A stretch of 61,080 nt of DNA, taken from positions 1 through 61,080 of the forward strand of contig CANQIE010000003.1 in NCBI GenBank assembly GCA_947623935.1. Reading direction: 5' to 3'. Every line of letters starts with the position of its first letter. The stretch's first letter is position 1. Below, piece by piece: positions 14,442 to 58,154 of the stretch. The stretch is from an uncultured Bacilli bacterium. GTDB taxonomy: Bacteria; Bacillota_I; Bacilli_A; RF39; UBA660. The position numbers were made by a program, and so were the translations under genes. The notes beneath the pieces were generated by a model. It saw only the letters and a program-made list of their open reading frames with translations, was not told where the DNA came from and did no database searches.

Positions 14442-16775
14442 ATGAAGATAAAAGGAAGACAACAGGTAGCCTTGTTTCTATTTTTATTGGGAATGATCTG
14501 CTTGTTATCAGGAACAAGTTATGCTTTCTATGAAGTACTTTATGAAGGAAGAACAGAAAATAAATTGGAAGCAGGAAGCTTTGCCATCGCTTTTGAAAAT
14601 AAAAGTAATACTATAACACTAGATAATGCATATCCCATGAGTGATGAAGAAGGAAATAATTTGGATCCTTTTCGTTTTTCAATAACGAATAATGGAACCC
14701 TTGCTTCCAAGTATCAATTAAGTATAGAAGAAGATAATAAGAACACGTTAAGTCGAGGATATTTAAAATATAGTTTAAAGAGAAATAATATAGAAGTAAC
14801 TGGTCCTTCTACTTTATCTAGTTTAATCATAGTAGATAATCAAACATTAGCACCAGAAGCAGTAGATAATTATGAATTAAGGATATGGTTAGATTATAAT
14901 ACGCCTAATGAAGCCATGAATCAGATATGGAAAGGGAAGATAAAGTTAGTAGCTCATGATAATGGAGTACAATATATAGAAGACCATATAGCCCCAACCA
15001 TAGAACTAGAAAAAGAATTAGTCATGACGATTGAAAAAGGAGGGACCTTTACTGATCCGGGAGTAAAATCTGTAACAGATAATAAAGATACAAATTTAGA
15101 TAAAGAAAAAGTAACTAGAAGATATGAGTATTATGATGGAGATAAAGTAAGTACAGTAACTGGTGTAGATACAGGAAAAGAAGGAGTATACATTATTTAT
15201 TATGAAATAAAAGATGAAAGTGGAAACAAAGGAGTAATAGCAAGGACTGTAAATGTAGTACAAGTCAATGAGAAAGCTCCAACAATAACTTTAGTAGGAG
15301 AAAGTACCTTAACGTATGCCAAAGGGAATTATTATGTAGAGCCTGGAGTAGAAGCCAAAGATGAACAGAATAATGATTTAACAAATCAAGTGATAACAAT
15401 TCATAATTTGAACTTAAATATAGAAGAAGACCAAGTAGTCAAATACTTTGTAATAGATAAAGATGGAAACATAGGAGGAGCAACGAGAACAATTAAAGTA
15501 GTTCCAGCTTATAAAGATAATACCAATGCCAATGAACCAAAGATAGTTGAAGGAATGATACCAGTAAAGTGGGATAAAAGTTTACAAAAATGGGTCAAAG
15601 TAGATATGATAGATCAATGGTACAATTATGAAATACAAGAATGGGCGAATGCGGTAACCGTTTCTGAAACAAGAAGAAAAGAATACCAAACAGCAGCAAA
15701 AGATACGCCAATAGAGATGGATGACATTAATACGATGTGGGTATGGATACCAAGATATGAATACAATTATGTAAGTATTGCAAATTATGCAGGAGGAACT
15801 CAAGCTCAACCAGGAGAAATAAAAGTTAACTTTATAAGTGGGACCAGTAGCAAAGTAAGTGATGAATATAATTACAAGATGCATCCAGCATTCACTTTTG
15901 GAGATAAAGAACTAACAGGAATCTGGTGTGGAAAATTTGAACCAAGTAACGAAGAAGGAATATATGGAGATAATAATGATGAAAAAGCTAATGATGCAAT
16001 GTTAACACCCATCATAAAACCAAATGTTCCTTCATGGAGAAATATACAAGTAGCAAACGCCTTTTATGCATCAAGAAAGATGCAAACTGAGAAGTATGAT
16101 GTCTATGGATTTCCAAATAACGAAACTTATGATACCCATATGAGTAAGAATAGTGAATGGGGTGCAGTTGCCTATCTATCTCAAAGTAAGTATGGAAAAT
16201 ATGGAAAAGATAAACAAGAAGTATACATCAATAACTGTTCTCAATTTATTACAGGAATAGCAGGAAATACAGCAAGTGAAAGTTCAAGTGCAGAAACTTG
16301 TAAAACAAATACTTATGAAACAGAAGCAGGCCAAAAAGCATCTACAACGGGCAACATATATGGAATCTACGATATGCATGGTGGAGCTAGGGACTATGTC
16401 ATGGGAGCATTAAATGATAATGGCAAACCAAAAATAGCAAGTTCAGGATTTACTGATGATACTAATGAGAATACAAAATTACCGAATGCTAAATATTATG
16501 ACTTATATACGAGTGCCAATCCTGATTCCGATGATGTAAGTTCATACATGACGGCTTGTAATAACGGAGTATGTTACGGTCATGCCTTATCTGAAACTGC
16601 AAGGTGGTATTGGGCTTCTTGGTCTTTTATAACTTCTTCGAGTCCGTGGCTCATGCACGGCGGTCGAGGTGGCGGTAGCGGTAGCGGTGGCATTGGAGAA
16701 GGAATGTATCGTGTTGACCATCAAACTGGCGCCATGAATTCCGTCTTTACATTTCGTCTCATGCTTGCCCCTTAA
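14442..16775 (+). CDS. Surface protein family copy 3 (same architecture as copy 2)
   Basis: Near-identical N-terminus to copies 2 and 4; divergent C-terminus ending TFRLMLAP. Confidence 0.85.
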   Translation: MKIKGRQQVALFLFLLGMICLLSGTSYAFYEVLYEGRTENKLEAGSFAIAFENKSNTITLDNAYPMSDEEGNNLDPFRFSITNNGTLASKYQLSIEEDNKNTLSRGYLKYSLKRNNIEVTGPSTLSSLIIVDNQTLAPEAVDNYELRIWLDYNTPNEAMNQIWKGKIKLVAHDNGVQYIEDHIAPTIELEKELVMTIEKGGTFTDPGVKSVTDNKDTNLDKEKVTRRYEYYDGDKVSTVTGVDTGKEGVYIIYYEIKDESGNKGVIARTVNVVQVNEKAPTITLVGESTLTYAKGNYYVEPGVEAKDEQNNDLTNQVITIHNLNLNIEEDQVVKYFVIDKDGNIGGATRTIKVVPAYKDNTNANEPKIVEGMIPVKWDKSLQKWVKVDMIDQWYNYEIQEWANAVTVSETRRKEYQTAAKDTPIEMDDINTMWVWIPRYEYNYVSIANYAGGTQAQPGEIKVNFISGTSSKVSDEYNYKMHPAFTFGDKELTGIWCGKFEPSNEEGIYGDNNDEKANDAMLTPIIKPNVPSWRNIQVANAFYASRKMQTEKYDVYGFPNNETYDTHMSKNSEWGAVAYLSQSKYGKYGKDKQEVYINNCSQFITGIAGNTASESSSAETCKTNTYETEAGQKASTTGNIYGIYDMHGGARDYVMGALNDNGKPKIASSGFTDDTNENTKLPNAKYYDLYTSANPDSDDVSSYMTACNNGVCYGHALSETARWYWASWSFITSSSPWLMHGGRGGGSGSGGIGEGMYRVDHQTGAMNSVFTFRLMLAP
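15723..15866 (+). repeat. 144-bp perfect identity patch shared with 35056-35199
   Basis: Manual base-by-base comparison; copies 1 and 2 carry a different sequence in this segment. Confidence 0.85.
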
Positions 16776-27455: not shown

Positions 27456-28367
27456 ATGGTGGAGATGTTTTCGCATGTTACTAAGATTCCTTATAAAGAC
27501 TCGACGGTTTATATCATGAACTTTAAAAACTTAGATCATTTCTTGGAAGAAGTAAAAGATGACTTTGAGTTAAATCCTATTTTTGAAAACGAACATAGCC
27601 TAACGGGAGATGCTTCTTTTACAGGAACTTCTTCTTATGAAGAAGCCTGGAAATTATGTAGGTTCACGATGAATAAAGGATTTGAACAATTCTATAAAAA
27701 GTTTCAATCACTAAATTACAAATTGAGTTATCATGAAAAGAAAATAGATTCCTTTAGTGTGGTTGGGTATGTTCCTAGTGTTCCAAGATACTTATTAGGA
27801 ATTCCTACTAGTATGCATAGTTACCGGACGGAGAAAGAAGAAAAAGCGATTCACATTTATATGAACATGGCGTATTCTTGCTATCAAAATGAAAAACAAA
27901 TTGAAAATCGTGGTTTAATTGTGTTAAACTTGGTTACTTATTTAGAGTCTCGTGGTTACAAAGTCGATTTATTTACATATGAATTTTCTGCCTGCGATGA
28001 CGAAAAAATATTAATTACTGTTCCTATTAAAACAGCTCTAGAAAAGTTAAACATTAAGAAAGCTTATTTTCCACTCGTACATCCCTCTTTTTTACGAAGG
28101 CTTTTGTTTCGGGCTAAGGAAAAAATGCCTGTTAAAAATTGGGAATGGAAGTATGGATACGGCTATCCTATGGAATATCAAGAAGCAGTTCAGTTCTTCG
28201 ACTATTATCACCCTGATTTTGAAAAAGAAAAAACACTTTATATTTCTACACCAAGTGAAATGGGTGTAAAGGGCGAAAACTTAGATCTCGATTTTGACCG
28301 GTTTCTAGAAACTTTAAATACGAATTATCAAAATAGAGAAAAACAAAAAGTAAAGACGAAAGGATGA
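27456..28367 (+). CDS. Degenerate vWA-like partner of MoxR AAA ATPase
   Basis: GYVPSVPRYLLGIP, IYMNMAYS (MIDAS-like position), HPSFLRRLLFR; directly downstream of the AAA gene. Confidence 0.6.
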   Translation: MVEMFSHVTKIPYKDSTVYIMNFKNLDHFLEEVKDDFELNPIFENEHSLTGDASFTGTSSYEEAWKLCRFTMNKGFEQFYKKFQSLNYKLSYHEKKIDSFSVVGYVPSVPRYLLGIPTSMHSYRTEKEEKAIHIYMNMAYSCYQNEKQIENRGLIVLNLVTYLESRGYKVDLFTYEFSACDDEKILITVPIKTALEKLNIKKAYFPLVHPSFLRRLLFRAKEKMPVKNWEWKYGYGYPMEYQEAVQFFDYYHPDFEKEKTLYISTPSEMGVKGENLDLDFDRFLETLNTNYQNREKQKVKTKG

Positions 28368-29287
28368 TGTTGATGAGTGCTCAAGATATATGGAAAAATA
28401 TGCCCAAAGAAGAAAATCCAATGGGACGTGCACCTAGCATTATCAATGGGGAAAAGAAAACTTTAACGAAAAGTAATTTAAAAATGTATGTGAATAGTAC
28501 CCCTATTGAGGATATCAATAAAGACACCTTTTTAGATTTCTTTGATGCATCTACTTTAGATAAAGTCATTCCTTCTACAACACTCTATCTACCGCACCTT
28601 ATATTTCATGCATATTACACCGATGAACAGATTTTAGCCCTTACGAATTTTATCTTTGAACTTGTATCTTGTCATCTTTTAACAACCGGTACAGGAATGA
28701 ATTACTTGCAATGTATATTTAATCGTCCAGAAGCATTACGTGAGGATACGGTTAAAAAGTTACTTGATCAAGGCATGGAAATAGGTGCTAACTTTGATCA
28801 TCGTGATGAAAATTGGAACACTGTTCTAGAATGGGCTTTAGTAGGAAATGGTTATCCTGGTGCCATAAGTGATATCTATCCTTATATGCCTCCTAGTTTT
28901 CATCCCAATATAAAGGATGGTAGTTATTATGATTTTAATCGAGATGAATTATTGTTTACAGATTTGGCAGAAATTACTTTAGGAAAAATATACTTCAACT
29001 ATGATGCAGAAAGTGAGGTTTATGATAAATATAAAACAATAAGACGTTATCAAAACCGCTATAAAAATTATAAAAATAGCAATAATAGTTATTTATTAAA
29101 AGTTTTGTGTAGTCATACGAATAATTTTTATCTTAGGTGTCATTTAAAGCCTTATGCTTTTGATGAAATTTCTTGTTGGAGTAAAGAATTAGCAGATTTT
29201 GCTGGTGTGTTTAAAAAAACAAAACTGAATACGATGGGAAGTTATTGGAAAGATAAGGAAAAAGAAAAGATATTAGTTAAAGAATAA
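28364..29287 (+). CDS. Hypothetical protein with degenerate ankyrin-like repeats (paralog A)
   Basis: GMNYLQCIF..TVKKLLDQGMEIGANFDHRDENWNTVLEWAL resembles the ANK consensus; paralog of 29297. Confidence 0.55.
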   Translation: MMLMSAQDIWKNMPKEENPMGRAPSIINGEKKTLTKSNLKMYVNSTPIEDINKDTFLDFFDASTLDKVIPSTTLYLPHLIFHAYYTDEQILALTNFIFELVSCHLLTTGTGMNYLQCIFNRPEALREDTVKKLLDQGMEIGANFDHRDENWNTVLEWALVGNGYPGAISDIYPYMPPSFHPNIKDGSYYDFNRDELLFTDLAEITLGKIYFNYDAESEVYDKYKTIRRYQNRYKNYKNSNNSYLLKVLCSHTNNFYLRCHLKPYAFDEISCWSKELADFAGVFKKTKLNTMGSYWKDKEKEKILVKE

Positions 29288-29296
29288 TAGGAAAGG

Positions 29297-30205
29297 ATGA
29301 TGTTGATGAGTGCTCAAGACATATGGAAAAATATGCCCCAAGAAGAAAATCCAATGGGATGTGCACCTGGTATTCTAAATGAGCAAAAGAAGCCTTTAAC
29401 GAGGAATCATTTAAGAATGTATACTTCTATTACACCTGTTAAGGATATCAATAAAGACACCTTTTTGGATTACTTTGATGAATCCACTTTAGATAAAGTA
29501 ATTCCATCAACTGAACTTTATTTACCTCATCTTATCTTTTATGATCATTATACAGATGAACAAATTTTAGCATTAACCAGTTTCATCTTTGATCTAGTAT
29601 CTTGTCACCTTTTAACGGAAAATACAGGTATGAATTACTTACAATGTATGTTTAATCGTCCACAGGCCTTATATGTTGCTACCATTATTGAACTACTTAA
29701 ACAAGGAATTGAAATTGGTGCTAATTTTGATCACCTTGATAATGATTGGAATTCTCTTCTTTCGTGGGCTTTGGTAGGAAATGGTTGTCCTGGTGAAATA
29801 AGTAAACTTTATCCCTATATATCTCCTGATTTTCATCCCGATAGGGTTAGTTATTATAAATTTAATCGAGATGAATTAATGTTTACGGGTTTGGTTAGTA
29901 TTGCTTTGGGAAAAATATATATTGATTATGATACAAAAGGTGAAAAAAAATATAGAGATGGAAATATAGGCGACTTTCAAGACCTTTACAACCGATTTAA
30001 GAAAAGAAATAACAATAGTTATTTATTAACTGTTTTACTTAATCACACGAGTGATTGTTATCTTAAAAGACATTTAAATGCTTATAAACCTAATGAGATT
30101 CCATACATGGCTAATGAATTATCAGCATTTGCTGGTGTATTTGAAAAAGATTTACTTGATACGATGGGAAGTTACTGGAAAGAAAAAGTTTTAACCAAAG
30201 AATAA
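29297..30205 (+). CDS. Hypothetical protein with degenerate ankyrin-like repeats (paralog B)
   Basis: Colinear with paralog A over its full length; first ~80 bp including RBS almost identical. Confidence 0.55.
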   Translation: MMLMSAQDIWKNMPQEENPMGCAPGILNEQKKPLTRNHLRMYTSITPVKDINKDTFLDYFDESTLDKVIPSTELYLPHLIFYDHYTDEQILALTSFIFDLVSCHLLTENTGMNYLQCMFNRPQALYVATIIELLKQGIEIGANFDHLDNDWNSLLSWALVGNGCPGEISKLYPYISPDFHPDRVSYYKFNRDELMFTGLVSIALGKIYIDYDTKGEKKYRDGNIGDFQDLYNRFKKRNNNSYLLTVLLNHTSDCYLKRHLNAYKPNEIPYMANELSAFAGVFEKDLLDTMGSYWKEKVLTKE

Positions 30206-33765: not shown

Positions 33766-36108
33766 ATGAAGATAAAAGGAAGACAACAGGTAGCCTTGTT
33801 TCTATTTTTATTGGGAATGATCTGTTTGTTATCCGGAACAAGTTATGCTTTCTATGAAGTACTTTATGAAGGAAGAACAGAAAATAAATTGGAAGCAGGA
33901 AGCTTTGCTATAGCCTTTGAAAATAAAAGTAATACTATCACTTTAGATAATGCTTATCCCATGAGTGATGAAGAAGGAAATAATCTTGATCCTTTTCGTT
34001 TTTCAATAACGAATAATGGAACCCTTGCTTCCAAGTATCAATTAAGTATAGAAGAAGATAGTAAGAATACCTTAAGTCGAGGATATTTAAAATATAGTTT
34101 AAAGAGAAATAATGAAGAAATAACTAGTTCTTCTACTTTATCTAGTTTAATCATAGTAGATAATCAAACATTAGCACCAGAAGCAGTAGATAATTATGAA
34201 TTAAGGATATGGATTGATTATAATACGCCTAATGAAGCGATGAATCAAATATGGAAAGGAAAGATAAAGTTAGTAGCCCATGATAATGGAGTACAATATA
34301 TAGAAGACCATATAGCCCCAACCATAGAACTAGAAAAAGAATTAGTCATGACGGTTGAAAAGGGAGAAACCTTTACTGATCCAGGGGTAAAATCTGTAAC
34401 AGATAATGTAGATAAAACAATAGATAAAAGTAAAGTAACTATTCGTTATGAATATTATGATGGAGATAAAGTAAGTACAGTAACTGGTGTAGATACAGGA
34501 AAAGAAGGAGTATATATCATCTATTATGAAATAAAAGATGAAAGTGGAAATAAAGGAGTAGTAGCAAGGACTGTAAATGTAGTCCAAGTTAATAAAAATG
34601 CCCCAACGATTACTTTGATAGGAGAAAGTACCTTAACGTATGCAAGAGGAAATTACTATGTAGAACCTGGAGCAACCGCCAAAGATGAACAGAATAATGA
34701 TTTAACGAATCAAGTAATAACAATTCATAATTTGAACTTAAACATAGAAGGAGACCAAATAGTCAAGTACTTTGTAATAGATAAAGATGGAAACATAGGA
34801 GGGAACACAAGAAATATACATGTAGTGCCTGCCTATAAAGATAGTACGAATGCCAATGAACCAAAGATCGTTGAAGGAATGATACCAGTAAGGTATGACG
34901 ATAATTTACAAAAATGGGTCAAAGTAGATATGATAGATCAATGGTACAATTATGAAATACAAGAATGGGCGAATGCCGTAACAGTAAAAGAAACAGGAAC
35001 CAAGACAAGAAAAGAATATCAAACAGCAGCAAAAGATACACCAATAGAGATGGAAGACATTAATACGATGTGGGTATGGATACCAAGATATGAATACAAT
35101 TATGTAAGTATTGCAAATTATGCAGGAGGAACTCAAGCTCAACCAGGAGAAATAAAAGTTAACTTTATAAGTGGGACCAGTAGCAAAGTAAGTGATGAAA
35201 ATAATTATAAAATGCATCCAGCGTTTACTTTTGGAGATAAAGAACTAACAGGAATCTGGTATGGAAAGTTTGAAACAAGTACAAAAGAAACATGTGTTGC
35301 AGGAGATTATTCAGTTGATAAAGCCTGTGATATAGAAACGTATACTCCAGAAATAAAACCGAATGTAACTTCATGGAGAGGAATCCGATTATCAACTGCT
35401 TTTGAAGTAAGTAGAAGAATGCAAACGACAAATTATAATATTTACGGATTTTCTAATAGTCAAACCAGTTATGATACACATATGAGTAAGAATAGTGACT
35501 GGGCTTCAGCTGCCTACCTATCTCAAAGTAAGTATGGAAAATACGGAAAAGATAAACAAGAAGTATATATAAACAACTGTTTAAATGATATAACAGGAAT
35601 AGCAGGAGATACAGCAAGTGCAAGTCGTGATTCTGTTTGTAAAAATACTTATGAAACAGAAGCAGGACAAAAAGCATCTACCACAGGAAATATTACAGGA
35701 ATCTATGATATGAGTGGCGGAGCATATGAATATGTAATGGGCGCTTTAAGTGATGAAAATGGTAAACCAAGAAGTGGTAGAAATGGTGAATATAATTCAG
35801 GATTCAATGGAGCATTAGAAAGTGATTTAGTATCTAAAGGAAGGATATTACCTGACGCCAAGTATTATGATTTATATACAGGTACTACTTTAGCAACAGC
35901 ATGTGGGAGTGGAATATGTTATGGAGATGCTTTTTCAGAGACTGTAAGATGGGGGTTTGATCATCAACTTTTTATGAGTTCTTCGAGCCCATGGGTAGCT
36001 CGTGGTGACCGTTGGACGGGTGGCACGGTAGCTGGTGTGTTTGGTGCGGCGGGTTCCGCAGGCGGTGCGACTATCAGCACGGGTTTCCGCTTGGTACTTA
36101 CTCCTTAA
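33766..36108 (+). CDS. Surface protein family copy 4 (same architecture as copies 2 and 3)
   Basis: Near-identical N-terminus; C-terminus PWVARGDRWTGGTVAGVFGAAGSAGGATISTGFRLVLTP resembles a DGR variable region. Confidence 0.85.
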   Translation: MKIKGRQQVALFLFLLGMICLLSGTSYAFYEVLYEGRTENKLEAGSFAIAFENKSNTITLDNAYPMSDEEGNNLDPFRFSITNNGTLASKYQLSIEEDSKNTLSRGYLKYSLKRNNEEITSSSTLSSLIIVDNQTLAPEAVDNYELRIWIDYNTPNEAMNQIWKGKIKLVAHDNGVQYIEDHIAPTIELEKELVMTVEKGETFTDPGVKSVTDNVDKTIDKSKVTIRYEYYDGDKVSTVTGVDTGKEGVYIIYYEIKDESGNKGVVARTVNVVQVNKNAPTITLIGESTLTYARGNYYVEPGATAKDEQNNDLTNQVITIHNLNLNIEGDQIVKYFVIDKDGNIGGNTRNIHVVPAYKDSTNANEPKIVEGMIPVRYDDNLQKWVKVDMIDQWYNYEIQEWANAVTVKETGTKTRKEYQTAAKDTPIEMEDINTMWVWIPRYEYNYVSIANYAGGTQAQPGEIKVNFISGTSSKVSDENNYKMHPAFTFGDKELTGIWYGKFETSTKETCVAGDYSVDKACDIETYTPEIKPNVTSWRGIRLSTAFEVSRRMQTTNYNIYGFSNSQTSYDTHMSKNSDWASAAYLSQSKYGKYGKDKQEVYINNCLNDITGIAGDTASASRDSVCKNTYETEAGQKASTTGNITGIYDMSGGAYEYVMGALSDENGKPRSGRNGEYNSGFNGALESDLVSKGRILPDAKYYDLYTGTTLATACGSGICYGDAFSETVRWGFDHQLFMSSSSPWVARGDRWTGGTVAGVFGAAGSAGGATISTGFRLVLTP

Positions 36109-36152
36109 TGATTTTGCAAAATGAACTATGGAAGAGATAGAAATAAAAAAAT

Positions 36153-36258
36153 GACTTTGTCAAGTTAACTGTGTAAAAAATTGATATGAACCCTATTTCT
36201 TGGGAAAAGAAATGAGATTCATATTAAAAAATAATTACACAGTTTTTTTATTGAAAGC
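36153..36258. mobile_element. Possible 106-bp MITE-like remnant (IS256-like ends) or long hairpin
   Basis: Nested inverted repeats AACTGTGTAA/TTACACAGTT, ATATGAA/TTCATAT, ATTTCTT/AAGAAAT; no clear target-site duplication. Confidence 0.3.
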
Positions 36259-36302
36259 AGAAAACAAACGTTTTATAATAAAGATAAGAGGAGGTATTAT
36301 TT

Positions 36303-37514
36303 ATGGAGAAAAAGAGAATTATTTTTCATGTCGATGTAAATAATGCCTTTTTGTCTTGGACCGCAGTTAAGATGTTGGAAGAGGGCTCAAGTATTGATAT
36401 TCGTACCATTCCTTCTGTTATTGGGGGAGACGAAGAGAACAGACACGGTATTGTTTTAGCGAAATCTCCTGTTGCTAAAAAGTATGGCATTAAGACTGCA
36501 GAGACCCTTTATGAAGCAAGGAAAAAGTGTTCTTCTCTTAAGACTTATCCATCGGACCATGCTTATTATAAGATGAAGTCTCATGAACTCTACCAATATT
36601 TTTTAACGATTACTCCTAATGTAGAACCTTTCTCGATTGATGAAAGTTTTTTAGATATGAGTGGTATGCGTTATCTACATAAAGATTTGATTCAGTTTGC
36701 GTACGAGATGAAAGATGAAATCAAGAAACGATTTGGATACACCGTCAATATTGGAATTGCAAATTGTAAACTGTGTGCAAAGATGGCTTCTGACTTTGAA
36801 AAACCAGATAAAGTACATACCCTTTTTGATGAAGAGATTAAAACAAAGATGTGGCCTTTACCTGTCGAAGACTTATTTATGGTGGGAAAGTCTACGAGTG
36901 AGAAATTAAAACAATTGGGAATTAAAACGATTGGAGACTTAGCAAGTAAAGATTTAAATTACTTACGTAAATACTTTAAATCGTTTGCTGTAACCTTACA
37001 CGAATATGCCAATGGAATTGACAACAGTTTAGTAGGAAAGAAAAAAACAGAGAGTAAAAGTATTTCTACTACGGAGACGTTATCCACCGATGTTGTGGAT
37101 AAAGCTATTTTAAAAAAGATTCTTTTAAAACAAGTAGATGAAGTAGGAAGAGATTTAAGACGTCAGGGATTTTATGCATCGACCATTGCGGTTATTTTAA
37201 GAACAAAAGACTTTGTCGATTATTCGCATCAAACGAAACTGGTAAATGCGACCAATGTGAATGAAGAAATCTATAAAACCGTTTGCCAATTATTAGACCA
37301 TGTTTATAGAGGAGAACCTATTCGTCTTATTGGTGTTCGGCTTGCTGATTTTACGAAAGAACGGATTAAACAAGTTTCTCTTTTTGAACGACCTAGTGAT
37401 GTTGAAAATGAAAAAGTGCAAAAGACCATGGATGAAATCAATGACCGTTTTGGGTCTACAAGTATTATTCCTGCTAGCCTTTTAAAACAAGAAAAAAAGA
37501 TTGACAAGAACTAA
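36303..37514 (+). CDS. dinB: DNA polymerase IV (Y family)
   Basis: FHVDVNNAF, SIDESFLD, CAKMASDFEKPD, IRLIGVR. Confidence 0.95.
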   Translation: MEKKRIIFHVDVNNAFLSWTAVKMLEEGSSIDIRTIPSVIGGDEENRHGIVLAKSPVAKKYGIKTAETLYEARKKCSSLKTYPSDHAYYKMKSHELYQYFLTITPNVEPFSIDESFLDMSGMRYLHKDLIQFAYEMKDEIKKRFGYTVNIGIANCKLCAKMASDFEKPDKVHTLFDEEIKTKMWPLPVEDLFMVGKSTSEKLKQLGIKTIGDLASKDLNYLRKYFKSFAVTLHEYANGIDNSLVGKKKTESKSISTTETLSTDVVDKAILKKILLKQVDEVGRDLRRQGFYASTIAVILRTKDFVDYSHQTKLVNATNVNEEIYKTVCQLLDHVYRGEPIRLIGVRLADFTKERIKQVSLFERPSDVENEKVQKTMDEINDRFGSTSIIPASLLKQEKKIDKN

Positions 37515-37553
37515 TTATTTTATTAATATAATAAACTATCGAAAAGAGGGAGA

Positions 37554-37949
37554 ATGGATATGGAAATGAAAAAAGATTTTGATAATACACTAGCAGAGGT
37601 GGTATCGGATGTTAAAGACAAAAAACAAGCACTTTTAACCGTGGTAGCAGAACTTTTAGGTTCAGGTGTACTTTCAGTAGATGCTTTGCCCTCTGATTTA
37701 AAAGATAAACTTTTAACTATGACGGAAGATTTAGCCTACGATGAAAGAGAAATTGATCTTATTAAAGAACATATGACTCATGCCATTGATCAAAACATCG
37801 ATGAAGTAGAAGATGAGTTCCTTAAATTTTTAGATGAAGCTAGGGAAAGAGAACGTGAAGAGGCTACCCAAAAAGAGATTGCTGACTATTATCAAGAACG
37901 CCCTCGTCGTCTTATGATTACCGTTCGTATTGGGAAGAAACAAAAATAA
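37554..37949 (+). CDS. Hypothetical protein
   Basis: 131 aa acidic helical ORF with RBS. Confidence 0.7.
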   Translation: MDMEMKKDFDNTLAEVVSDVKDKKQALLTVVAELLGSGVLSVDALPSDLKDKLLTMTEDLAYDEREIDLIKEHMTHAIDQNIDEVEDEFLKFLDEAREREREEATQKEIADYYQERPRRLMITVRIGKKQK

Positions 37950-37970
37950 ACCTATTTTTAGGGGGAGTAT

Positions 37971-38606
37971 TTGATGACGAGTCAAGAATTAACAGAAAAA
38001 ATTAAAAGTGTAGAAAATGAAATAGCAAAATGCGAAGAAGAAATAACTTCTTATGAAAACAATTATCAACAATCTCTTAGCAAGCTTATTCAAGAAAAAG
38101 AACAACTACTAGAAGAGCGAAAAAGAGTTGATCGCTTAATTACGATTAAAAAATATAGAATGCCTTTTTCAATTTTAAAAATTGCTCTTACTTTGCTATT
38201 TTCTCTTACTTTAGGGGGAATAACCATTGCTGTACCTGATTTGATATTGAAAGCACCTATGGGTATTATTTGGTTTATCTCTAGTCTTTTAGGAGCCGGT
38301 ATCGTTATAAGTTCTATTAATCATATTATTAAAGATCATAAACAAATGGAGCTTGCATCTTTTCCAACCTTTGCCAATTTATATCAATCGGAAGATGAAT
38401 TAACTAAGAAAATAAATGAACAAGATGAACAAATTGAATATCAAGAAGAGTGTCATGATATGATGCGCCCTTCTAAAGATAGAATTCGTTATTTACAAAA
38501 AGAATTAAAAGGTTATCAAAGTGCATTTGATCAATTGATGGGATTAGTTGATAGTCCTAGTTTAGAAATGGAAAAACCACCAATGCAGAAAAGGAGGGAT
38601 TCATAA
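37971..38606 (+). CDS. Hypothetical coiled-coil protein with 2 TM segments
   Basis: Coiled coil - two hydrophobic helices - coiled coil. Confidence 0.7.
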   Translation: MMTSQELTEKIKSVENEIAKCEEEITSYENNYQQSLSKLIQEKEQLLEERKRVDRLITIKKYRMPFSILKIALTLLFSLTLGGITIAVPDLILKAPMGIIWFISSLLGAGIVISSINHIIKDHKQMELASFPTFANLYQSEDELTKKINEQDEQIEYQEECHDMMRPSKDRIRYLQKELKGYQSAFDQLMGLVDSPSLEMEKPPMQKRRDS

Positions 38607-38607
38607 T

Positions 38608-39198
38608 ATGGGAAAAGATTTACATGCTACTTTAGGTGAAGGAATGACGAAATTAAAAGAAAATCCTAATTTGCCTGAAGAGATTAAAGATCTTGTAGAT
38701 ATATTAGCTCAAGAATACGATGAAGCAAGTATTTTAGATATGGCCCCTTCTAATATAGAAAGAGAATTAACTGATAAAGAAAAAGCCAAACTAGAAAAAT
38801 TAGAACATCAAGGCTTGATGGCTTACTATCGCTTAGTTTGTGCTGTTGATAAAAATGAACGAAAGATGTATTTACGTTTGCTACGTGCAACGATTTTATC
38901 TTGCATTTTGGAAAGCAATGGTAAATATGGTATGCGCAATTTCCGTTATTTCTATAATAAAGCTTCAGATATGGTGGAAGGAAATACTGGAAAAAGTCTT
39001 TTATATCCCGACATGTATCAATGTGATGACTTAACGGATAATGAAAAATTAGAATTACTTCGAAAAGGTAGCATTGCTAAGACGAAAGACTTTTTATGTA
39101 AAAGAGGTTATTTGAAAGTAGAAAAGCCAGGCGAAATTTTTGAAGATTTAAGAGTTACGGAAAAAGGAAAAGAATACATTAAACGATTTGGAAATTAG
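38608..39198 (+). CDS. Hypothetical protein, possible C-terminal winged helix
   Basis: C-terminal FLCKRGYLKVE..LRVTEKGKEY pattern typical of wHTH wings. Confidence 0.6.
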   Translation: MGKDLHATLGEGMTKLKENPNLPEEIKDLVDILAQEYDEASILDMAPSNIERELTDKEKAKLEKLEHQGLMAYYRLVCAVDKNERKMYLRLLRATILSCILESNGKYGMRNFRYFYNKASDMVEGNTGKSLLYPDMYQCDDLTDNEKLELLRKGSIAKTKDFLCKRGYLKVEKPGEIFEDLRVTEKGKEYIKRFGN

Positions 39199-39260
39199 AA
39201 GGAAGGTGCCCCTTGCCTTTTTCTTTGCTTCAATTTTTTAAAAAAGTTTTTAAAAAAGCC

Positions 39261-39412
39261 TTGTCAAATAAGGAAATGCTATGTTATAATTAATTTCGTG
39301 TGGCTGCTTAGATGTGGGAGGTTGTCGATACACCCGGATAAGTTGTTCGAATGTATCGGGTTATTCACACGGAGCAAGTCTATACTAGATATAGGCGAAG
39401 GGAGGATTTAAA
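39261..39412 (+). promoter_or_regulatory. S10 operon promoter and conserved Firmicutes rpsJ leader
   Basis: TTGTCA-18 bp-TATAAT with extended TG; leader GATGTGGGAGGTTGTCGATACACCCGG...CACGGAG...TAGGCGAAGGGAGG resembles the B. subtilis rpsJ leader as recalled. Confidence 0.75.
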
Positions 39413-39721
39413 ATGTCAAAAGAAAAGGTTCGTATCAAATTAAAAAGTTATGAACACGGAATGCTAGATAATGCCGCAACAAAAATAGTAGAAACTGTAA
39501 AAAGATCAGGTGGAGAAATCAGTGGACCAGTACCACTTCCTACTGAAATTGAAAAATATACTATTTTAAGAGCTGTACACAAAGACAAAGATTCTCGTGA
39601 ACAATTCGAGATGCGTACACACAAAAGACTTATTGATATCAAGAATCCAAGCAAGGAAACCATTGAGGCACTTACTCATTTGGATTTACCAAGCGGTGTT
39701 GATATTGAAATCAAACTATAA
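39413..39721 (+). CDS. rpsJ: 30S ribosomal protein S10
   Basis: [25 protein letters not shown]. Confidence 0.98.
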
Positions 39722-39746
39722 CAAATATTATTAGGAGGAAAAGAAA

Positions 39747-40565
39747 ATGAAAGGAATCTTAGGTAAAAAGATAGGAATGACTCAAGTTTTTGCTAAGAAC
39801 GGAAAATTAATTCCTGTTACCGTTATCGAAGTTGAACCTAATGTGGTTACGCAAATCAAAACCATGGAAAACGATGGTTATGAAGCAATCCAATTAGGAA
39901 CCGGAACGGTAAGAGAAAAACTTAGTAACAAACCTAAAATGGGTCATACAAAGAAAGCGAATACAGAACCTAAGCGCTTCTTAAGAGAAATTAGGGGAGT
40001 AAATGTAAGCGACTATACATTAGGTCAAGTACTTGATGCAAGCCTCTTCCAAGAAGGGGAAATGGTCGATGTTACAGGAGTTAGTAAAGGTAAAGGATAC
40101 CAAGGTGTTATTAAACGTTGGAATCAAACAAGAGGTCCTATGGGACACGGATCACAATACCATAGAGGTGTGGGATCTATGGGAACCCTTTTACCAATGC
40201 ACGTATTAAAAGGTAAGAAATTACCTGGTCACATGGGTCATCAAACGAGAACGGTACAAAATCTTGAAATAGTAGCCGTTGATTTAGAAAACAATGTTAT
40301 CTTAGTTAAAGGTAATGTTCCAGGTCCAAAGAAGTCTTTAGTCATCATTCGTACAGCAGTTAAAAATCCAAACAAAGTAAATCCAAAAGTAGAACTTATG
40401 GTTTACGAAGTTGAGCAGGAAGAAGCAACAAGTGAAGAAGTTGCACCTGCTACTGAAGAGACTGCTGAAGAGGCTGAAGTAGCATCTCAAGAAGAAACAA
40501 CTGAAGAAGTTACAGAAGAATCAACCGATGCACAAGAAGAATCATCACAAGAAGTTAGCGAATAA
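39747..40565 (+). CDS. rplC: 50S ribosomal protein L3 with acidic C-terminal extension
   Basis: [23 protein letters not shown]; extra ~55 aa E/T/A/S-rich tail. Confidence 0.98.
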
Positions 40566-53620: not shown

Positions 53621-53656
53621 AAAAAGTTATCAGATTAGGGGATTGGAGGGATTTTG

Positions 53657-54532
53657 ATGAACGAGATAGAATTAACTTTACTCGAAGAAGAACAACTGGT
53701 TGGAAGTGACAAATGCGATTGCTTGGATCTTTTTAAACATACCAGCGTAGAAAGAGGATGTACGGATTATTGTATTCTTACTGGAGCTTCTTCGATTCCT
53801 ATGCGTATTAATGGTCAATTGGATTATAGTAAAAAGTCTATTCCTTTTTGGACTAAATCAGGATTTGGGGGTGAAGTGGTACGTGTTTGTCATCATCAAA
53901 AAATAGAGACGATCATTGTATATGATGATTATGTTTCGATTGTTCCTGTTTTTAAAGTGGATCCTCATTTGCTATCTACTCTTCCTCAAGTAAAGAATAA
54001 CGGTATTATAGAAGTTCAATATGGAGAATATCCCTCCTTTATAGTGGAAGAAGAACTCTTTAGTAAGTTAGAAACAGCCCTCCAGGAAGGAAAATTGAGT
54101 GAGACAGGGAAAGTTTATACGAAAGATCCAATTCCTCGAATGTTTTGTAATAGAATTCCCACTTTAACCGAATTTCTTTATGGAGGAAAAAAATATATTC
54201 GACTAAAAATGGATAGGGATAGATGGGGACATCTTTCCAACGGAGTAATTGTTCAAAAAGGAATAGTTTATTGGCTAAAAGTAGAACCTATTGTTTGGCA
54301 ATACGATGCTCCATCGGGTTTTCTTATCTCTAAAACAGGTTTAGTCTCAGGCGTTCCTTTTTGTGATGAACCTACTAACTCTATTGAAGATGCCTATATG
54401 TATCATTATTTAAATACCTATCTTGCAAAAGAAATCATTCCTTCTCAAATGGTAGAAGACAAATCAAGTGTATTTGATAACAATGAGTCCTTAAAAAAAT
54501 ACGTTTATAAAAACTATGGAAAGAAGAGATAG
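53657..54532 (+). CDS. DUF6273-like paralog 1 of 5
   Basis: TDYCILTG, YGEYP, YWLKVEPIVW, LVSG, tail LKKYVYKNYG; family label from memory. Confidence 0.6.
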   Translation: MNEIELTLLEEEQLVGSDKCDCLDLFKHTSVERGCTDYCILTGASSIPMRINGQLDYSKKSIPFWTKSGFGGEVVRVCHHQKIETIIVYDDYVSIVPVFKVDPHLLSTLPQVKNNGIIEVQYGEYPSFIVEEELFSKLETALQEGKLSETGKVYTKDPIPRMFCNRIPTLTEFLYGGKKYIRLKMDRDRWGHLSNGVIVQKGIVYWLKVEPIVWQYDAPSGFLISKTGLVSGVPFCDEPTNSIEDAYMYHYLNTYLAKEIIPSQMVEDKSSVFDNNESLKKYVYKNYGKKR

Positions 54533-54533
54533 C

Positions 54534-55448
54534 ATGGACAATTTTGAATTAAGATTTTTAACCAAAGAAGAAATTTATGTGAATCAGTATGATGAAGATG
54601 AAACCACAGCTCTTGATGTATTACAAAAATATTGTACTGGTGTTGCTGCTAGGAATACGGACTTTTCTTGTTTAACGGGAGGATTACGTTCAGGGAGCAG
54701 TGCTTTTTATTATCTTGAATCCAATTATTCAAATGGTAGATTTTATTTTATGGGTGACTATGCTAATTATAATTCTTGTGATCAATATCAATTGGTTGAA
54801 AGTTACAAAGGACATCTACCTATTCGTCCTGTTCTTTATTTTCCAAATAGAAAAGTAAGTAAAGAGAATTTAAATTTTGATTGGGAACAAAAAATCTATT
54901 GGTGGGAGTATGGAGAATATCCTCAATTTGTTTTGGATGGGAATAATGCACTAGAACGAAACATAATCGAAGTTTTAAATCAAAAACTTTGTATGCAATC
55001 TTTGGATAAAACAGGAAAAACCTATTGCTTCTATCAAAGTAAAAAGAATGCTCCTTGTTCTATAAACTATGTAAGTGAATATGTTTATGAAGGAAAGAAA
55101 TATGTTCCTTTGGTAGCGAATGGCATAAAGACGGGAGCCTTGCTTTCTACCGGCGAGAAGATTGTAGATTTTAAACTTTATTGGTTAAAAGTAGAGCCTA
55201 TTGTTTGGCTATATGATGAAGAAAAGGACCTTTTTATTTCGGAACATGCACTTGTTTCAGGGCCTAGTTTCGATTTTGTCAAAAAAGGAGATGGCTTTGA
55301 AGCAACAGAGATGTACGAATATATCCATAATCATTTGAAACGAGATATCATCCCATCTCGTGTTATGGAAGAAGATAAATCAAGTTTATTAGATAGCAGT
55401 AAAACTTTAAAAAAGTATGTTTATAAAAACTATGGAAGAAGAGGATAA
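54534..55448 (+). CDS. DUF6273-like paralog 2 of 5
   Basis: Same motifs; start moved to ATG 54534 (MDNFELR). Confidence 0.6.
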   Translation: MDNFELRFLTKEEIYVNQYDEDETTALDVLQKYCTGVAARNTDFSCLTGGLRSGSSAFYYLESNYSNGRFYFMGDYANYNSCDQYQLVESYKGHLPIRPVLYFPNRKVSKENLNFDWEQKIYWWEYGEYPQFVLDGNNALERNIIEVLNQKLCMQSLDKTGKTYCFYQSKKNAPCSINYVSEYVYEGKKYVPLVANGIKTGALLSTGEKIVDFKLYWLKVEPIVWLYDEEKDLFISEHALVSGPSFDFVKKGDGFEATEMYEYIHNHLKRDIIPSRVMEEDKSSLLDSSKTLKKYVYKNYGRRG

Positions 55449-55449
55449 C

Positions 55450-56343
55450 ATGGACGATTTTGAATTAAGATTACTAACTAAGGAAGAAGCTTATATAGAT
55501 GATGAAGATGAAAATGAGACTACAGCACTTGAAGTATTACGAAAAAAGGATAATGTATCTGCTGACAACACCGATTTATCTTGTTTGACGGGAAGTTATA
55601 CAGATGCAAATGATACATCTTTTTATAGTCTTCAACCTGATTTAAGTCATAAAAAATTTTATTATGTGGATGATGATTGTTATATTGATGATAAAGAATT
55701 CTATAGTAGGTTTAATGCTGTTCGTCCTGTTCTCTATTTCTTAAATTCAACCGCTTATCGGGACCACCTCATTTATGATAAGCATAGATTGACCAGACTC
55801 AAATATGGAGAATATCCTCAATATGTTTTAAATGAGAACTCAAATGAAAAGAAAATAATGAATGAATTAAATAAAAAACTCATAGAGCAAACTTTAACCA
55901 AAACAGGAAAAACGTATTGCTTTTATTACGGGGAAAGTGGTAAACGACCTTCTATGTGTTATGGAATAGAGTATCTCTATAAAGGAAAAAAATATATGCC
56001 ATTTATATCAACAATTTATCAGGGAGCCGATATTTATCTTTCTACAGGAGATACTATTGATCCGTATAGAATTTATTGGTTAAAAGTAGAACCCATCACG
56101 TGGTTATATGATGAAAATACAGCACTTTTTATTTCAGAAAAGGCTTTAGTTTCAGGAGTAGGATTTGAATTTGTAAAAAAAGGAAATAATTATGAAGCAA
56201 CCGAAATGTATGAATTTTTAAATATGCATTTGAAACAAGATATTATTCCATCCCGTATTATAAAAGAAGATAAATCCAGTTTATTAGATGGTAGTGAGTC
56301 TTTAAAAAAATACGTTTATAAAAACTATGGAAGAAGAGGATAA
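55450..56343 (+). CDS. DUF6273-like paralog 3 of 5
   Basis: Same motifs; start moved to ATG 55450 (MDDFELR). Confidence 0.6.
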   Translation: MDDFELRLLTKEEAYIDDEDENETTALEVLRKKDNVSADNTDLSCLTGSYTDANDTSFYSLQPDLSHKKFYYVDDDCYIDDKEFYSRFNAVRPVLYFLNSTAYRDHLIYDKHRLTRLKYGEYPQYVLNENSNEKKIMNELNKKLIEQTLTKTGKTYCFYYGESGKRPSMCYGIEYLYKGKKYMPFISTIYQGADIYLSTGDTIDPYRIYWLKVEPITWLYDENTALFISEKALVSGVGFEFVKKGNNYEATEMYEFLNMHLKQDIIPSRIIKEDKSSLLDGSESLKKYVYKNYGRRG

Positions 56344-56344
56344 G

Positions 56345-57256
56345 ATGGATGACTTTGAACTAAGAATCTTAAAAAGAGAAGAAGTTTCAACAAAGACATC
56401 TCTTGAAGTGTTTAAAAGAGAAGAAGTTTCAACAAAGACATCTCTTGAAGTGTTTAAAAGAAATGATCCGGTTTTTACTACCAACACTGATTTGGCTATT
56501 TTAACGGGAGGAGCTACTTATGTAGATGATATAGGTTATTATAGTCTTCAACCTGATTTGAAAAAGAAAGAATTTTATTATATGGATGTAGGACATCATT
56601 ATGTCAATGTAGGAAATGCCCATCATCGAGTAGAATCTGTTCGCCCTGTTTTACATTTTATTAATTCAACTGCTTATCGAAATAACCTATTTTATGATGA
56701 AAATAAAATACCCAAACTTCAATTTGGAGAATATCCTCAATATGTTTTGAAAAGCAATGATGCAAAAATAGTGAACGAATTGAATGAAAAACTGATGGAT
56801 CAAACGTTGAAGAAAACGGGAAAGAAGTATTGCTTTTATTATGGAGAGGACGATAAACCAGCTTCCATTCGTTATGGAATAGAGTATTTTTATAACGATA
56901 AAAAATATATGCCATTTACAGCCATCGTCTATAACTCTCCCAATAGGAGACGTCTTTCTATCGGGGAGATTTGTCCTTCTAGAATTTATTGGCTAAAAGT
57001 AGAACCTATTACGTGGTTATATGATGAAGAAACGGATCTTTTTATAGCTGAAAAAGCGTTAGTTGCAGGAGTAGGATTAGGACTTATAAAAGAGGGAAAT
57101 GATTTTGAATCCACAGAAATGTATGAATTTCTAAATACGCATATGAAGCAGGATATGCTTCCATTCCAAGGAGATAAATCCAATTTATTAGATGAAAGTG
57201 AATCTTTAAAAAAATATGTGTATAAAAACTATGGAAGGAAGAGGCAATATGGATGA
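56345..57256 (+). CDS. DUF6273-like paralog 4 of 5
   Basis: Same motifs; start moved to ATG 56345; internal 14-aa duplication. Confidence 0.6.
   Translation: MDDFELRILKREEVSTKTSLEVFKREEVSTKTSLEVFKRNDPVFTTNTDLAILTGGATYVDDIGYYSLQPDLKKKEFYYMDVGHHYVNVGNAHHRVESVRPVLHFINSTAYRNNLFYDENKIPKLQFGEYPQYVLKSNDAKIVNELNEKLMDQTLKKTGKKYCFYYGEDDKPASIRYGIEYFYNDKKYMPFTAIVYNSPNRRRLSIGEICPSRIYWLKVEPITWLYDEETDLFIAEKALVAGVGLGLIKEGNDFESTEMYEFLNTHMKQDMLPFQGDKSNLLDESESLKKYVYKNYGRKRQYG
56372..56455 (+). repeat. Perfect 42-bp tandem duplication (in frame, KREEVSTKTSLEVF x2)
   Basis: 56372-56413 identical to 56414-56455, plus 6 nt of a third unit. Confidence 0.92.
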
Positions 57257-58154
57257 CTTTGAACTAAGACTCTTAACGAAAGAAGAAGTTTATGTAGATA
57301 AGTATGACTCTACTAAGACTACGGCTCTTAAGGTATTACAAAACTATGGTAATGTTTGTGCTCAAAGTACCGATTTAGCTTGCTTAGCAGGAGGAATTGA
57401 TTCTTATAATGAAACCATGGCTGAGTACTGGCTTCAACCGAATCTAGAGAAGAAAGAATTTTATTATTTAAATAGTGATGGTGAAGTTAAAAAAGCATCT
57501 AGTAATTGTAGAGATAATTCTATTCGTTTAGTTTTACGGTTCTTAGATAAGAAAGTGGATGAGTATGATTTGCATTTTACTTCTATTAATGGAGGACTTT
57601 ACTGGTTCGAATTTGGCGAATATCCACAATATATTTTGAGTGCTCATCACATAAAACTGATTAATGAATTAAATACCAAGTTCTGTGAACAAAAGTTGCA
57701 ACTTACCGGAAAAGGCTATTGCTTTTACTATGGGAGGGATAAAGAGGCTTCCATGCGTTATATGGCAGAGTATCAATACAATGGAGCAAAGTATATACCC
57801 TTTATACCCTTTACCACGTCTTCTCATTTATCAAAATCTCTTTCTACAGGCGTGGATGTAGATTTTGAAAAAATGTATTGGTTAAAAGTTGATCCTATTA
57901 TTTGGTTGTACGATGAAGAGACAGGATTATGTGTATCTGAAAATGCCCTTGTTGCAGGCGCAGGTTTCGACTTTGTCAAAGGAGGAGGAAGTATGGAATC
58001 TACCGAGATGTATCAATATTTAAATATCCATTTGAAACAAGACATCCTTCCATCTGGTGCTATGAAAGAGAATAAGTCAAATGTACTCGATAGTAATTCT
58101 TCTTTGAAAAAATACGTTTATAAACAGTATGGAAAGAAATCGAATGTAAAGTAA
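57249..58154 (+). CDS. DUF6273-like paralog 5 of 5
   Basis: Same motifs; start moved to ATG 57249. Confidence 0.6.
   Translation: MDDFELRLLTKEEVYVDKYDSTKTTALKVLQNYGNVCAQSTDLACLAGGIDSYNETMAEYWLQPNLEKKEFYYLNSDGEVKKASSNCRDNSIRLVLRFLDKKVDEYDLHFTSINGGLYWFEFGEYPQYILSAHHIKLINELNTKFCEQKLQLTGKGYCFYYGRDKEASMRYMAEYQYNGAKYIPFIPFTTSSHLSKSLSTGVDVDFEKMYWLKVDPIIWLYDEETGLCVSENALVAGAGFDFVKGGGSMESTEMYQYLNIHLKQDILPSGAMKENKSNVLDSNSSLKKYVYKQYGKKSNVK

Follow-up and report, generated by a model that had tools for sequence, protein, structure and literature searches.

The stretch of DNA analysed here (the window) comprises 61,080 nucleotides of contig CANQIE010000003.1 (GenBank assembly GCA_947623935.1), which derives from an uncultured Bacilli bacterium. 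It carries four paralogous genes, referred to in this work as copies 1 to 4, and the subject of the analysis is the 3′ end of copy 4 (33766-36108, + strand). This segment, called the tip (35978-36106, + strand), encodes the 43 residues SSSSPWVARGDRWTGGTVAGVFGAAGSAGGATISTGFRLVLTP and resembles the variable region (VR) of a diversity-generating retroelement (DGR). In the paradigm of such systems, that of Bordetella phage BPP-1, RNA of a template repeat (TR) is copied into adenine-mutagenised cDNA, which then replaces the VR. The tip is delimited by a compositional scan; it avoids A at synonymous sites and is colinear with VR and TR scaffolds verified in relatives of the organism.

The copy 4 gene, its paralogs and their tips

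According to its open reading frame, the alignment with its paralogs and Pfam, copy 4 encodes a 780-aa secreted or surface protein. Its N-terminal segment, MKIKGRQQVALFLFLLGMICLLSGTSYAF, has the sequence of a putative signal or anchor and is followed by a beta-rich region. Two bacterial surface Ig-like domains (PF16403) lie at 34324-34824 on the + strand (residues ~187-272 and 282-353; E 7e-22, in two stretches, and E 1e-20 in the Pfam search of copy 4). The rest of the protein (34831-36105, + strand; residues 356-780) is a predicted ligand-binding domain of the C-type lectin (CLec) or formylglycine-generating enzyme (FGE) type, assigned with AlphaFold2 (AF2) and Foldseek, and it ends in the tip. 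An exact look-up of the copy 4 protein returned no identical protein on record.

The gene as a whole has a GC content of 34%, from which its 3′ end departs sharply. Positions 36001-36090 contain 9 A, 21 C, 39 G and 21 T, that is 60/90 G+C, against 19/60 G+C and 23 A in a sample of the gene body (34441-34500); these counts had been given in a preliminary description of the locus and were exact on recount. Of all 90-mers in the 61 kb, this one has the highest G+C; the mean per 90-mer is 30.5 (sd 5.0). Only 8 of ~61,000 90-mers reach 60 G+C, every one of them overlapping the copy 4 tip, and the copy 3 tip (16602-16745) forms the sole other cluster at 52 or more. VR-like and gene-body composition were also contrasted in a log-odds scan of the entire 61 kb, and its best segment, 35978-36106 (129 nt, GC 0.61, A 0.11), nearly coincides with the interval 35981-36108 proposed earlier.

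The depletion of A extends to synonymous positions. When codons for the same 40 residues of the copy 4 tip were drawn from the window's own usage, the total number of A was 14 observed versus 25.0±3.2 expected (p 4.5e-4), and the number of A-ending codons was 5 versus 15.0±2.8 (p 2.5e-4). The copy 3 tip shows the same avoidance (p about 6e-4), which is absent from the tips of copies 1 and 2 in the same test. A-depleted 3′-end patches of ~100-150 nt that include synonymous sites, as expected of a TR-derived segment, are thus found in copies 3 and 4, and not in copies 1 and 2. The preliminary description had assigned DGR tips to all four copies, which was too broad, the tips of copies 1 and 2 having host-like codons.

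The composition can also be read without any DGR: the tip would be a Gly/Ala/Arg-rich loop, GC-rich on account of its amino acids, gained from a homolog of higher GC, either horizontally or in an ordinary recombination event, and kept by selection on the protein. We give this explanation little credence. It draws on the fact that the amino acids alone account for about half of the GC excess (64.6/120 expected versus 75 observed), and it is opposed by the significant synonymous A-avoidance (p about 3e-4), which copies 1 and 2 lack.

Copies 2-4 each have a predicted hydrophobic N-terminal signal or anchor, two PF16403 domains and a C-terminal domain of ~425 residues. Copy 3 (14442-16775, + strand; 777 aa) bears the second VR-like segment of the window (16577-16773; GC 0.51, A 0.18), and copy 2 (8185-10488, + strand; 767 aa) has a tip as long as that of copy 4, with host-like codons and no VR signature. 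Copy 1 (211-2184, + strand; 657 aa) is without the pair of Ig-like domains, and the signature of its tip is weak (82 nt, GC 0.49). The four copies are dispersed, with housekeeping genes around them (uvrA, lgt, trxB, whiA, clpP, gap, spo0A and the S10 operon). Four genes with unlike tips, as described earlier, are confirmed, the tips differing in both length and sequence. Within the copy 3 tip, positions 16653-16700 include a Gly/Ser-rich run (GGC GGT CGA GGT GGC GGT AGC GGT AGC GGT GGC), an insertion that makes this tip 4 codons longer than the others. Indels of 3n nucleotides opposite repeats have been described for some DGRs.

The C-terminal 425 residues of copy 4 were modelled with AF2 from a 68-sequence alignment (pLDDT 94.7, pTM 0.94). 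The top match of the model in the PDB, as found by Foldseek, is a DGR variable protein, TaqVP (5vf4; E 1.5e-11, probability 1.0), and further matches include PorK, TvpA (2y3c), ToxD, Mtd (1yu4), EgtB, PvdO and FGE (2q17). The structural comparison with Mtd and TvpA suggested earlier therefore agrees with a CLec/FGE-like fold, and the residues that correspond to a VR lie at its C-terminus, as in DGR targets. By sequence alone, the domain has no significant PDB match and no Pfam match above threshold: against a gathering threshold of 23.3 bits, FGE-sulfatase (PF03781) scored 15.2 bits in copy 4 and 20.5 bits in copy 2, with no match in copies 1 and 3, so that the resemblance seen in the model is at the level of the fold only. 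The fold is compatible with an origin of the tip without a DGR as well, as many CLec/FGE-fold proteins are not DGR targets. The CLec variable-region motif invoked in the preliminary description fits the tip approximately (RGD in place of RGG, with spacing one residue off), whereas the consensus of the family's own tips, derived here as PW.xRGG(7x)AGVF(6x)G.A(4x)SFRLVL, is matched by copy 4.

Retroelement cassettes and related tips in gut Bacilli

The copy 4 protein has more than 3,300 homologs. Among GTDB representative genomes, 372 matches were obtained, mostly in metagenome-assembled genomes (MAGs) of uncultured rabbit-gut Bacilli, with dozens of paralogs per genome. The last 120 nt of 92 family tips reach GC 0.66 and A 0.10, against 0.35 and 0.40 in the gene bodies. 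TRs were found by searching each family tip against all retrieved loci, and this revealed DGR cassettes next to members of the family. At locus L078, the target gene is followed by a TR, bAvd (PF22296, E 7e-16), a reverse transcriptase (RT; motifs GNFTSQ and YMDD) and another paralog, and 10/10 TR/VR mismatches over 150 nt fall at TR adenines. Loci L083 and L089 have the order target, TR, MutS_I-like gene, bAvd and RT, with 18/22 and 18/18 mismatches at TR adenines, respectively, and L087, L088 and L090 share this layout. A MutS-like gene belongs to a known class of DGR accessory genes (PMC5758913). In a further locus, L030, a TR lies 137 nt after the stop codon (12/15 mismatches at TR adenines), with no RT or Avd in 14 kb.

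The C-terminal domains of the targets at L078, L083 and L087-L090 are homologous to that of copy 4 over its full length, with 30-42% identity; for L083 and L089, the identity across the whole domain is 34-37% (E 6e-63 and 1.6e-52, respectively). The protein family of copy 4 is a target of DGRs in related gut Bacilli. Verified TR/VR pairs have a GC content of 0.44-0.58 in genomes of ~30-35% GC and are 84-93% identical; the TRs contain 34-38 A per 131-150 nt, of which 27-47% are changed. The copy 4 tip agrees with the verified VRs in length class, in its position at the extreme 3′ end of the gene, and in its scaffold codons (CGT GGT ... GCT GGY GTR TTY ... TTC CGC).

Some features of these loci deserve separate mention. 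The RT gene of L078 (L078:8178-9211) is split by one frameshift near 8625 (CDVK/KYFYSID), which is either a MAG sequencing error or the mark of a pseudogene; intact homologs have ~345 aa. At L030 (L030:9239-11560; MAG Lapin-003-2 bin48), the target and its TR are followed by a gene for a RecD2-like helicase. The VR of L030 differs at 7 sites between the MAG and the rabbit sample of run X10: the sample agrees with the TR at 5 of them (four A, one G), has a new substitution opposite a TR adenine at another, and differs at a non-A site in the last case, a pattern that suggests live diversification by a trans-acting RT. The complete cassette of L089 (L089:124-6387) belongs to a more distant relative, with ribosomal proteins 60-84% identical, and lies directly upstream of the S10 operon, the same neighbourhood as that of copy 4; it may be an old shared site or, given the number of paralogs, a coincidence. 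As for a phage origin of the domain, tblastn gave no match in 50,697 phage records.

The orthologous locus in a congener (L006, from MAG Lapin-032 bin119) repeats the layout around copy 4: a gene of the family is followed by a Y-family polymerase gene (97% aa identity), two small open reading frames and the S10 operon, and the flank is 89.9% identical in DNA to positions 36227-39874 of the window. The CLec domains are 72% identical, and the tip together with ~120 nt after the stop codon cannot be aligned. Since the non-homologous stretch reaches that far past the stop, it indicates a swap by recombination rather than homing alone, a point in favour of an origin of the copy 4 tip without a DGR. 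The same ortholog also speaks against that origin, because a patch of this type is present in it and in dozens of relatives' paralogs, some of which have a TR next to them. The relatives found are all low-GC organisms, so no high-GC donor is in sight. Taken with the match in length, position and scaffold codons to verified VRs and TRs, this family context and the synonymous A-avoidance make a purely non-DGR origin of the copy 4 tip unlikely.

The tip of the L006 gene is GC-rich with mostly NNC codons, and it has the same scaffold codons and the same 21-nt 3′ block (TCGTTCCGCCTAGTGCTCGTC) as at least 4 other scattered paralogs of Lapin-032 bin119. Five paralogs with similar tips (L005, L006, L035, L076 and L080) vary mainly in their NNC codons and, judged by their sequences, resemble a set of remote targets served by one TR or by several that are closely related. 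No single exact TR accounts for the five tips, because the 60 variable columns include synonymous third positions and an in-frame stop would be forced. They are better described as a shared template family than as proven co-targets.

The region behind the VR differs between copy 4 and several related loci. An AT-rich hairpin with a U-run, the probable intrinsic terminator of copy 4, lies at 36167-36252 on the + strand (-27.6 kcal/mol, z -5.4) and begins 59 nt after the stop codon. Its outer stem is common to the ortholog L006, while its loop has ~50 extra nt; the low GC of the stem explains why a simple scan for terminator consensus missed it. At L078, L030 and L005, GC-rich stems of 11-12 bp occur within ~60 nt of the stop; directly after the copy 4 VR there is no GC-rich inverted repeat, only this terminator-like hairpin. 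The earlier statement that no post-stop hairpin is visible needs amending in this respect, and it holds for GC-rich stems of the kind found behind verified VRs.

Template search, population data and the origin of the tip

The preliminary description had reported neither an RT nor a TR in the window, which is borne out. An exhaustive ungapped scan of both strands of the window gave no TR-like copy of any of the four tips or their sub-segments at up to 45% mismatch, and no RT, Avd or MutS-like gene was found in it by tblastn with the respective L078 and L089 proteins or by a motif scan; a DGR-type RT ([LIV]GxxxSQ, YxDD) with an accessory gene is likewise absent from the window. An A-tolerant TR pattern for 36001-36075, with third codon positions fixed, had 0 matches in IMG/VR, GTDB genomes and JGI metagenomes. 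As the VR itself was also unmatched, the source genome lies outside these three collections and this negative carries little weight. None of the window's tips has its cognate TR among those of three relatives, and the copy 4 tip has no DNA similarity to ~90 other family tips. Four RT homologs (P0218, P0168, P0193 and P0204) were considered and set aside: none comes from the source organism, two are from samples recorded as human gut, and their TRs are not cognate. A single TR serving both copy 3 and copy 4 was also rejected, since one tip is 4 codons longer than the other and most columns differ.

The sole metagenome that holds the organism is a rabbit gut sample (S1), available as Logan unitigs of four runs (X1-X4). 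In this sample, just one 475-nt unitig (35688-36162) carries the copy 4 tip, without differences and at a depth of 11.6-17.9 versus 13.9-16.4 in the flanking unitigs. With a 701-nt query, no other contig of S1 matched 35972-36091 at ≥80% identity. The sensitivity of this search appears adequate, since contigs of 11-23 kb were aligned in it on stretches of 86-96 nt at ~80-85% identity. In a positive control (run X10), a TR-bearing contig was aligned to the L030 VR over 58 nt with 7 differences: at 4 of these sites an A of the TR stands opposite another base in the MAG VR, and the other 3 correspond to non-A differences known from the L030 pair. Given this working control and the 84-93% TR/VR identity of the family, a cognate TR should have been seen in S1. 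No TR differing from the tip at its adenines only was found in the window, the three collections or S1, which would also be expected if no DGR had ever acted at the tip.

The tip of copy 3 is invariant in S1 as well, on a 17-kb contig. Short queries proved unreliable: a 191-nt query from copy 3 matched nothing, while a 1.4-kb query found the 17-kb contig that covers it perfectly, and the absence of variants with a 166-nt copy 4 query in S1 is discounted for the same reason. Runs X5-X8 contained only divergent relatives or too little coverage of the VR. A second assembly (ENA ERZ27249187 NODE_381, locus L001) is identical to the window over 22.3 kb apart from 56 differences, and its copy 4 tip is the same. 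Adenine-site-restricted variation of the VR was detected neither in the S1 unitigs (12-18x) nor in this second, near-clonal assembly.

These data bear on the alternative that the tip is an active remote target, rewritten in trans by a DGR elsewhere in the genome (that of copy 3 perhaps from a second TR), with an activity too rare or a TR too diverged to show. We hold this possible, though on balance doubtful. Remote targets are established for DGRs outside phages (PMC5758913) and are missed by surveys (PMC8144416), and the components are dispersed in this lineage, as at L030, where a TR is present without RT or Avd in 14 kb and the VR allele still differs at 7 sites between the MAG and sample S6. 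The template shared by the L006 VR with at least four other scattered paralogs, the undecayed composition of the copy 4 tip, and the blindness of 12-18x unitig data to minor variants are also in its favour. The opposing evidence consists of the lack of a TR-like contig at ≥80% in the whole S1 metagenome, though the control found its TR and family pairs are 84-93% identical; the unbranched VR unitig at full genome depth; the identical tip in two assemblies; the missing GC-rich inverted repeat after the VR, unlike L078, L030 and L005; and the need for different TRs for copies 3 and 4.

Recombination among the copies, also proposed earlier, is evident. Copies 2-4 are 85-100% identical over their first 1.4 kb and mosaic (40-80%) over the last 850 nt. 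All 56 differences of the second assembly fall in the body of copy 4 (33825-35226), and at 56/56 of these sites L001 carries the allele of copy 2 or copy 3. Such a pattern stems either from conversion of one paralog by another or from chimeric assembly of near-identical repeats. In S1, a 311-nt contig at full depth links a copy-2-like tip (CAAGTTAACGTGTCATTCCGTCTTGTATTG) with sequence 94% like the 3′ flank of copy 4 (36100-36213) and then runs into a different 9-kb contig, which represents a fifth paralog, outside the window, with a recombination-prone 3′ flank. The mosaic C-terminal halves, the conversion tracts and the junction at the fifth paralog indicate that the present differences among the copies are mainly due to recombination.

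Weighing these observations, we moderately favour the reading that the copy 4 tip is a DGR-written VR that is now orphan and static, with the copies presently diverging mainly through paralog recombination. The tip would once have been written by a DGR, as its composition and family context suggest, and its uniformity in S1 is consistent with a currently static state. Most likely, it either stems from past DGR activity and has since been frozen, or was acquired through recombination from a DGR-bearing lineage. The preliminary description had left the choice between a remote DGR target and a relic: a DGR-type VR on a CLec/FGE-like fold stands, and the relic branch is favoured by the TR-less, monomorphic S1 data. 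It had also named the lack of a matching TR together with monomorphic reads as grounds for abandoning the remote-target reading, and this is the outcome in the available data; it favours the relic branch, with an active remote target as the possible alternative.

The proposed course of events is as follows. A secreted or surface protein would present a 43-residue variable tip on a CLec/FGE-like domain, which may bind ligands. A GC-rich TR would have been reverse-transcribed with errors at adenines, and the mutagenised cDNA would have replaced the 3′ end of the gene (mutagenic retrohoming), writing the 129-nt tip on the ligand-binding face and leaving an A-poor, GC-rich patch in a gene of 34% GC. 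With the cognate TR and the Avd and RT genes absent from the 61 kb and no TR-like sequence found in S1, the tip would now be an orphan, fixed in that sample, and recombination and gene conversion between paralogs would mainly have generated the present differences among the four copies.

Several points weigh against the tip being an orphaned, static VR. Without its TR, an A-to-N origin of the copy 4 tip itself cannot be shown, and its variable codons are mostly T- or G-ending rather than the classic NNC, which also suits an origin without a DGR. The G+C at third codon positions and the A-avoidance are strong and unameliorated; such undecayed values point to recent writing, compatible with an active system as well as with recent loss. 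A remote RT or TR elsewhere in the genome is possible, the searches having covered the 61 kb and S1. The S1 evidence comes from one sample and from assembled unitigs at 12-18x, which drop rare variants, and the identity floor of 80% would let a TR escape that is less than 80% identical or of the possibly A-rich type of this genus. In addition, the second assembly represents essentially the same clone as the window, which limits the evidence for invariance.

A wider interpretation is that copy 4 is a node of a genus-wide trans-acting DGR network, in which dozens of CLec surface-protein paralogs, scattered amid the housekeeping genes of an uncultured rabbit-gut Bacilli lineage, would be rewritten from dispersed TRs by an RT elsewhere, with tips shuffled by recombination and, for copy 4, a TR below the 80% floor. 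Some targets would have kept a TR of their own but no RT, as at L030. We regard this as a speculative and rather unlikely scenario; if true, the network would represent remote multi-target diversification beyond the seven remote targets recorded in Treponema.

Some neighbouring genes were noted in passing. The Y-family (ImpB/MucB/DinB-type) DNA polymerase gene at 36303-37514 lies 195 nt downstream of copy 4. Its role as a local mutator was considered and rejected: nothing ties the polymerase to variation of the tip, its synteny is kept in the congener L006, and the proximity is treated as a coincidence. Two groups of tandem paralogous open reading frames of ~300 aa, both unrelated to the tip, occur at 27456-30205 (three frames, one of them for a DUF7192 protein; the last two, 28364-30205, share 76% DNA identity) and at 53654-58154 (five).

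Significance and comparison with known systems

CLec-type DGR target families are already known, and copy 4 does not alter the understanding of the DGR mechanism. What it adds is that a VR without RT and TR can be recognised from sequence alone by an A-poor, GC-rich patch that extends to synonymous sites, a CLec fold and a family scaffold. DGR surveys anchor on the RT and nearby TR/VR pairs (PMC8144416), and because of this anchoring, VRs with remote or lost machinery are systematically missed. In addition, DGRs are linked to a large family of surface-protein paralogs in uncultured Bacilli of the herbivore gut, and the conserved locus makes it possible to date when a VR was gained, lost or replaced. 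As a relic, the tip would date a recent loss of hypermutation at a conserved site of the chromosome; as a live remote target, it would extend trans-acting DGR networks to this clade. In both cases, the copy 4 protein is a candidate for a variable adhesin or ligand-binding protein in a gut commensal.

The closest structural counterpart is TaqVP of Thermus aquaticus (5VF4), which has a CLec/FGE-type fold with variable residues at its C-terminal end, like copy 4. The sequence identity between the two is 14-15% with a TM of 0.40-0.45, and sequence searches do not link them. TaqVP has its TR and RT alongside, while copy 4 adds a signal or anchor and two Ig-like domains. Mtd of Bordetella phage BPP-1, a receptor-binding protein, likewise has a CLec fold with a C-terminal VR; however, it is a phage tail-fibre protein with an initiation of mutagenic homing (IMH) sequence and a GC-rich hairpin directly after its VR, whereas copy 4 is chromosomal, lies amid housekeeping genes and is without such a hairpin.

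Among the cellular cassettes of gut Bacilli/Firmicutes (L078, L083 and L087-L090), a GC-rich VR is found at the 3′ end of the gene in genomes of ~30-35% GC, as in copy 4, and its length is 131-150 nt versus 129 nt in copy 4. These cassettes have adjacent TR, Avd and RT, and their targets often have pilin-like N-termini (N_methyl) and are without the Ig-like pair, while copy 4 lacks the machinery in 61 kb.

TvpA of Treponema denticola is, like the copy 4 protein, a variable protein with a CLec fold. Treponema is the textbook example of a single DGR acting on several targets that lie apart from it on the chromosome, of which the survey counted seven (PMC5758913). The same arrangement is suspected here and is suggested by the paralog set of the congener; in Treponema, however, the remote VRs can be compared with a known TR and depart from it at adenines only, while for copy 4 no TR was found. 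Thiohalocapsa PB-PSB1 possesses several DGR loci, some without RT and/or TR, which are still diversified in trans (PMC10907252), and it provides a precedent for dispersed components such as those at L030. It differs in the lineage of its RT and in its STAND-type sensor targets, and its diversification is backed by population data.

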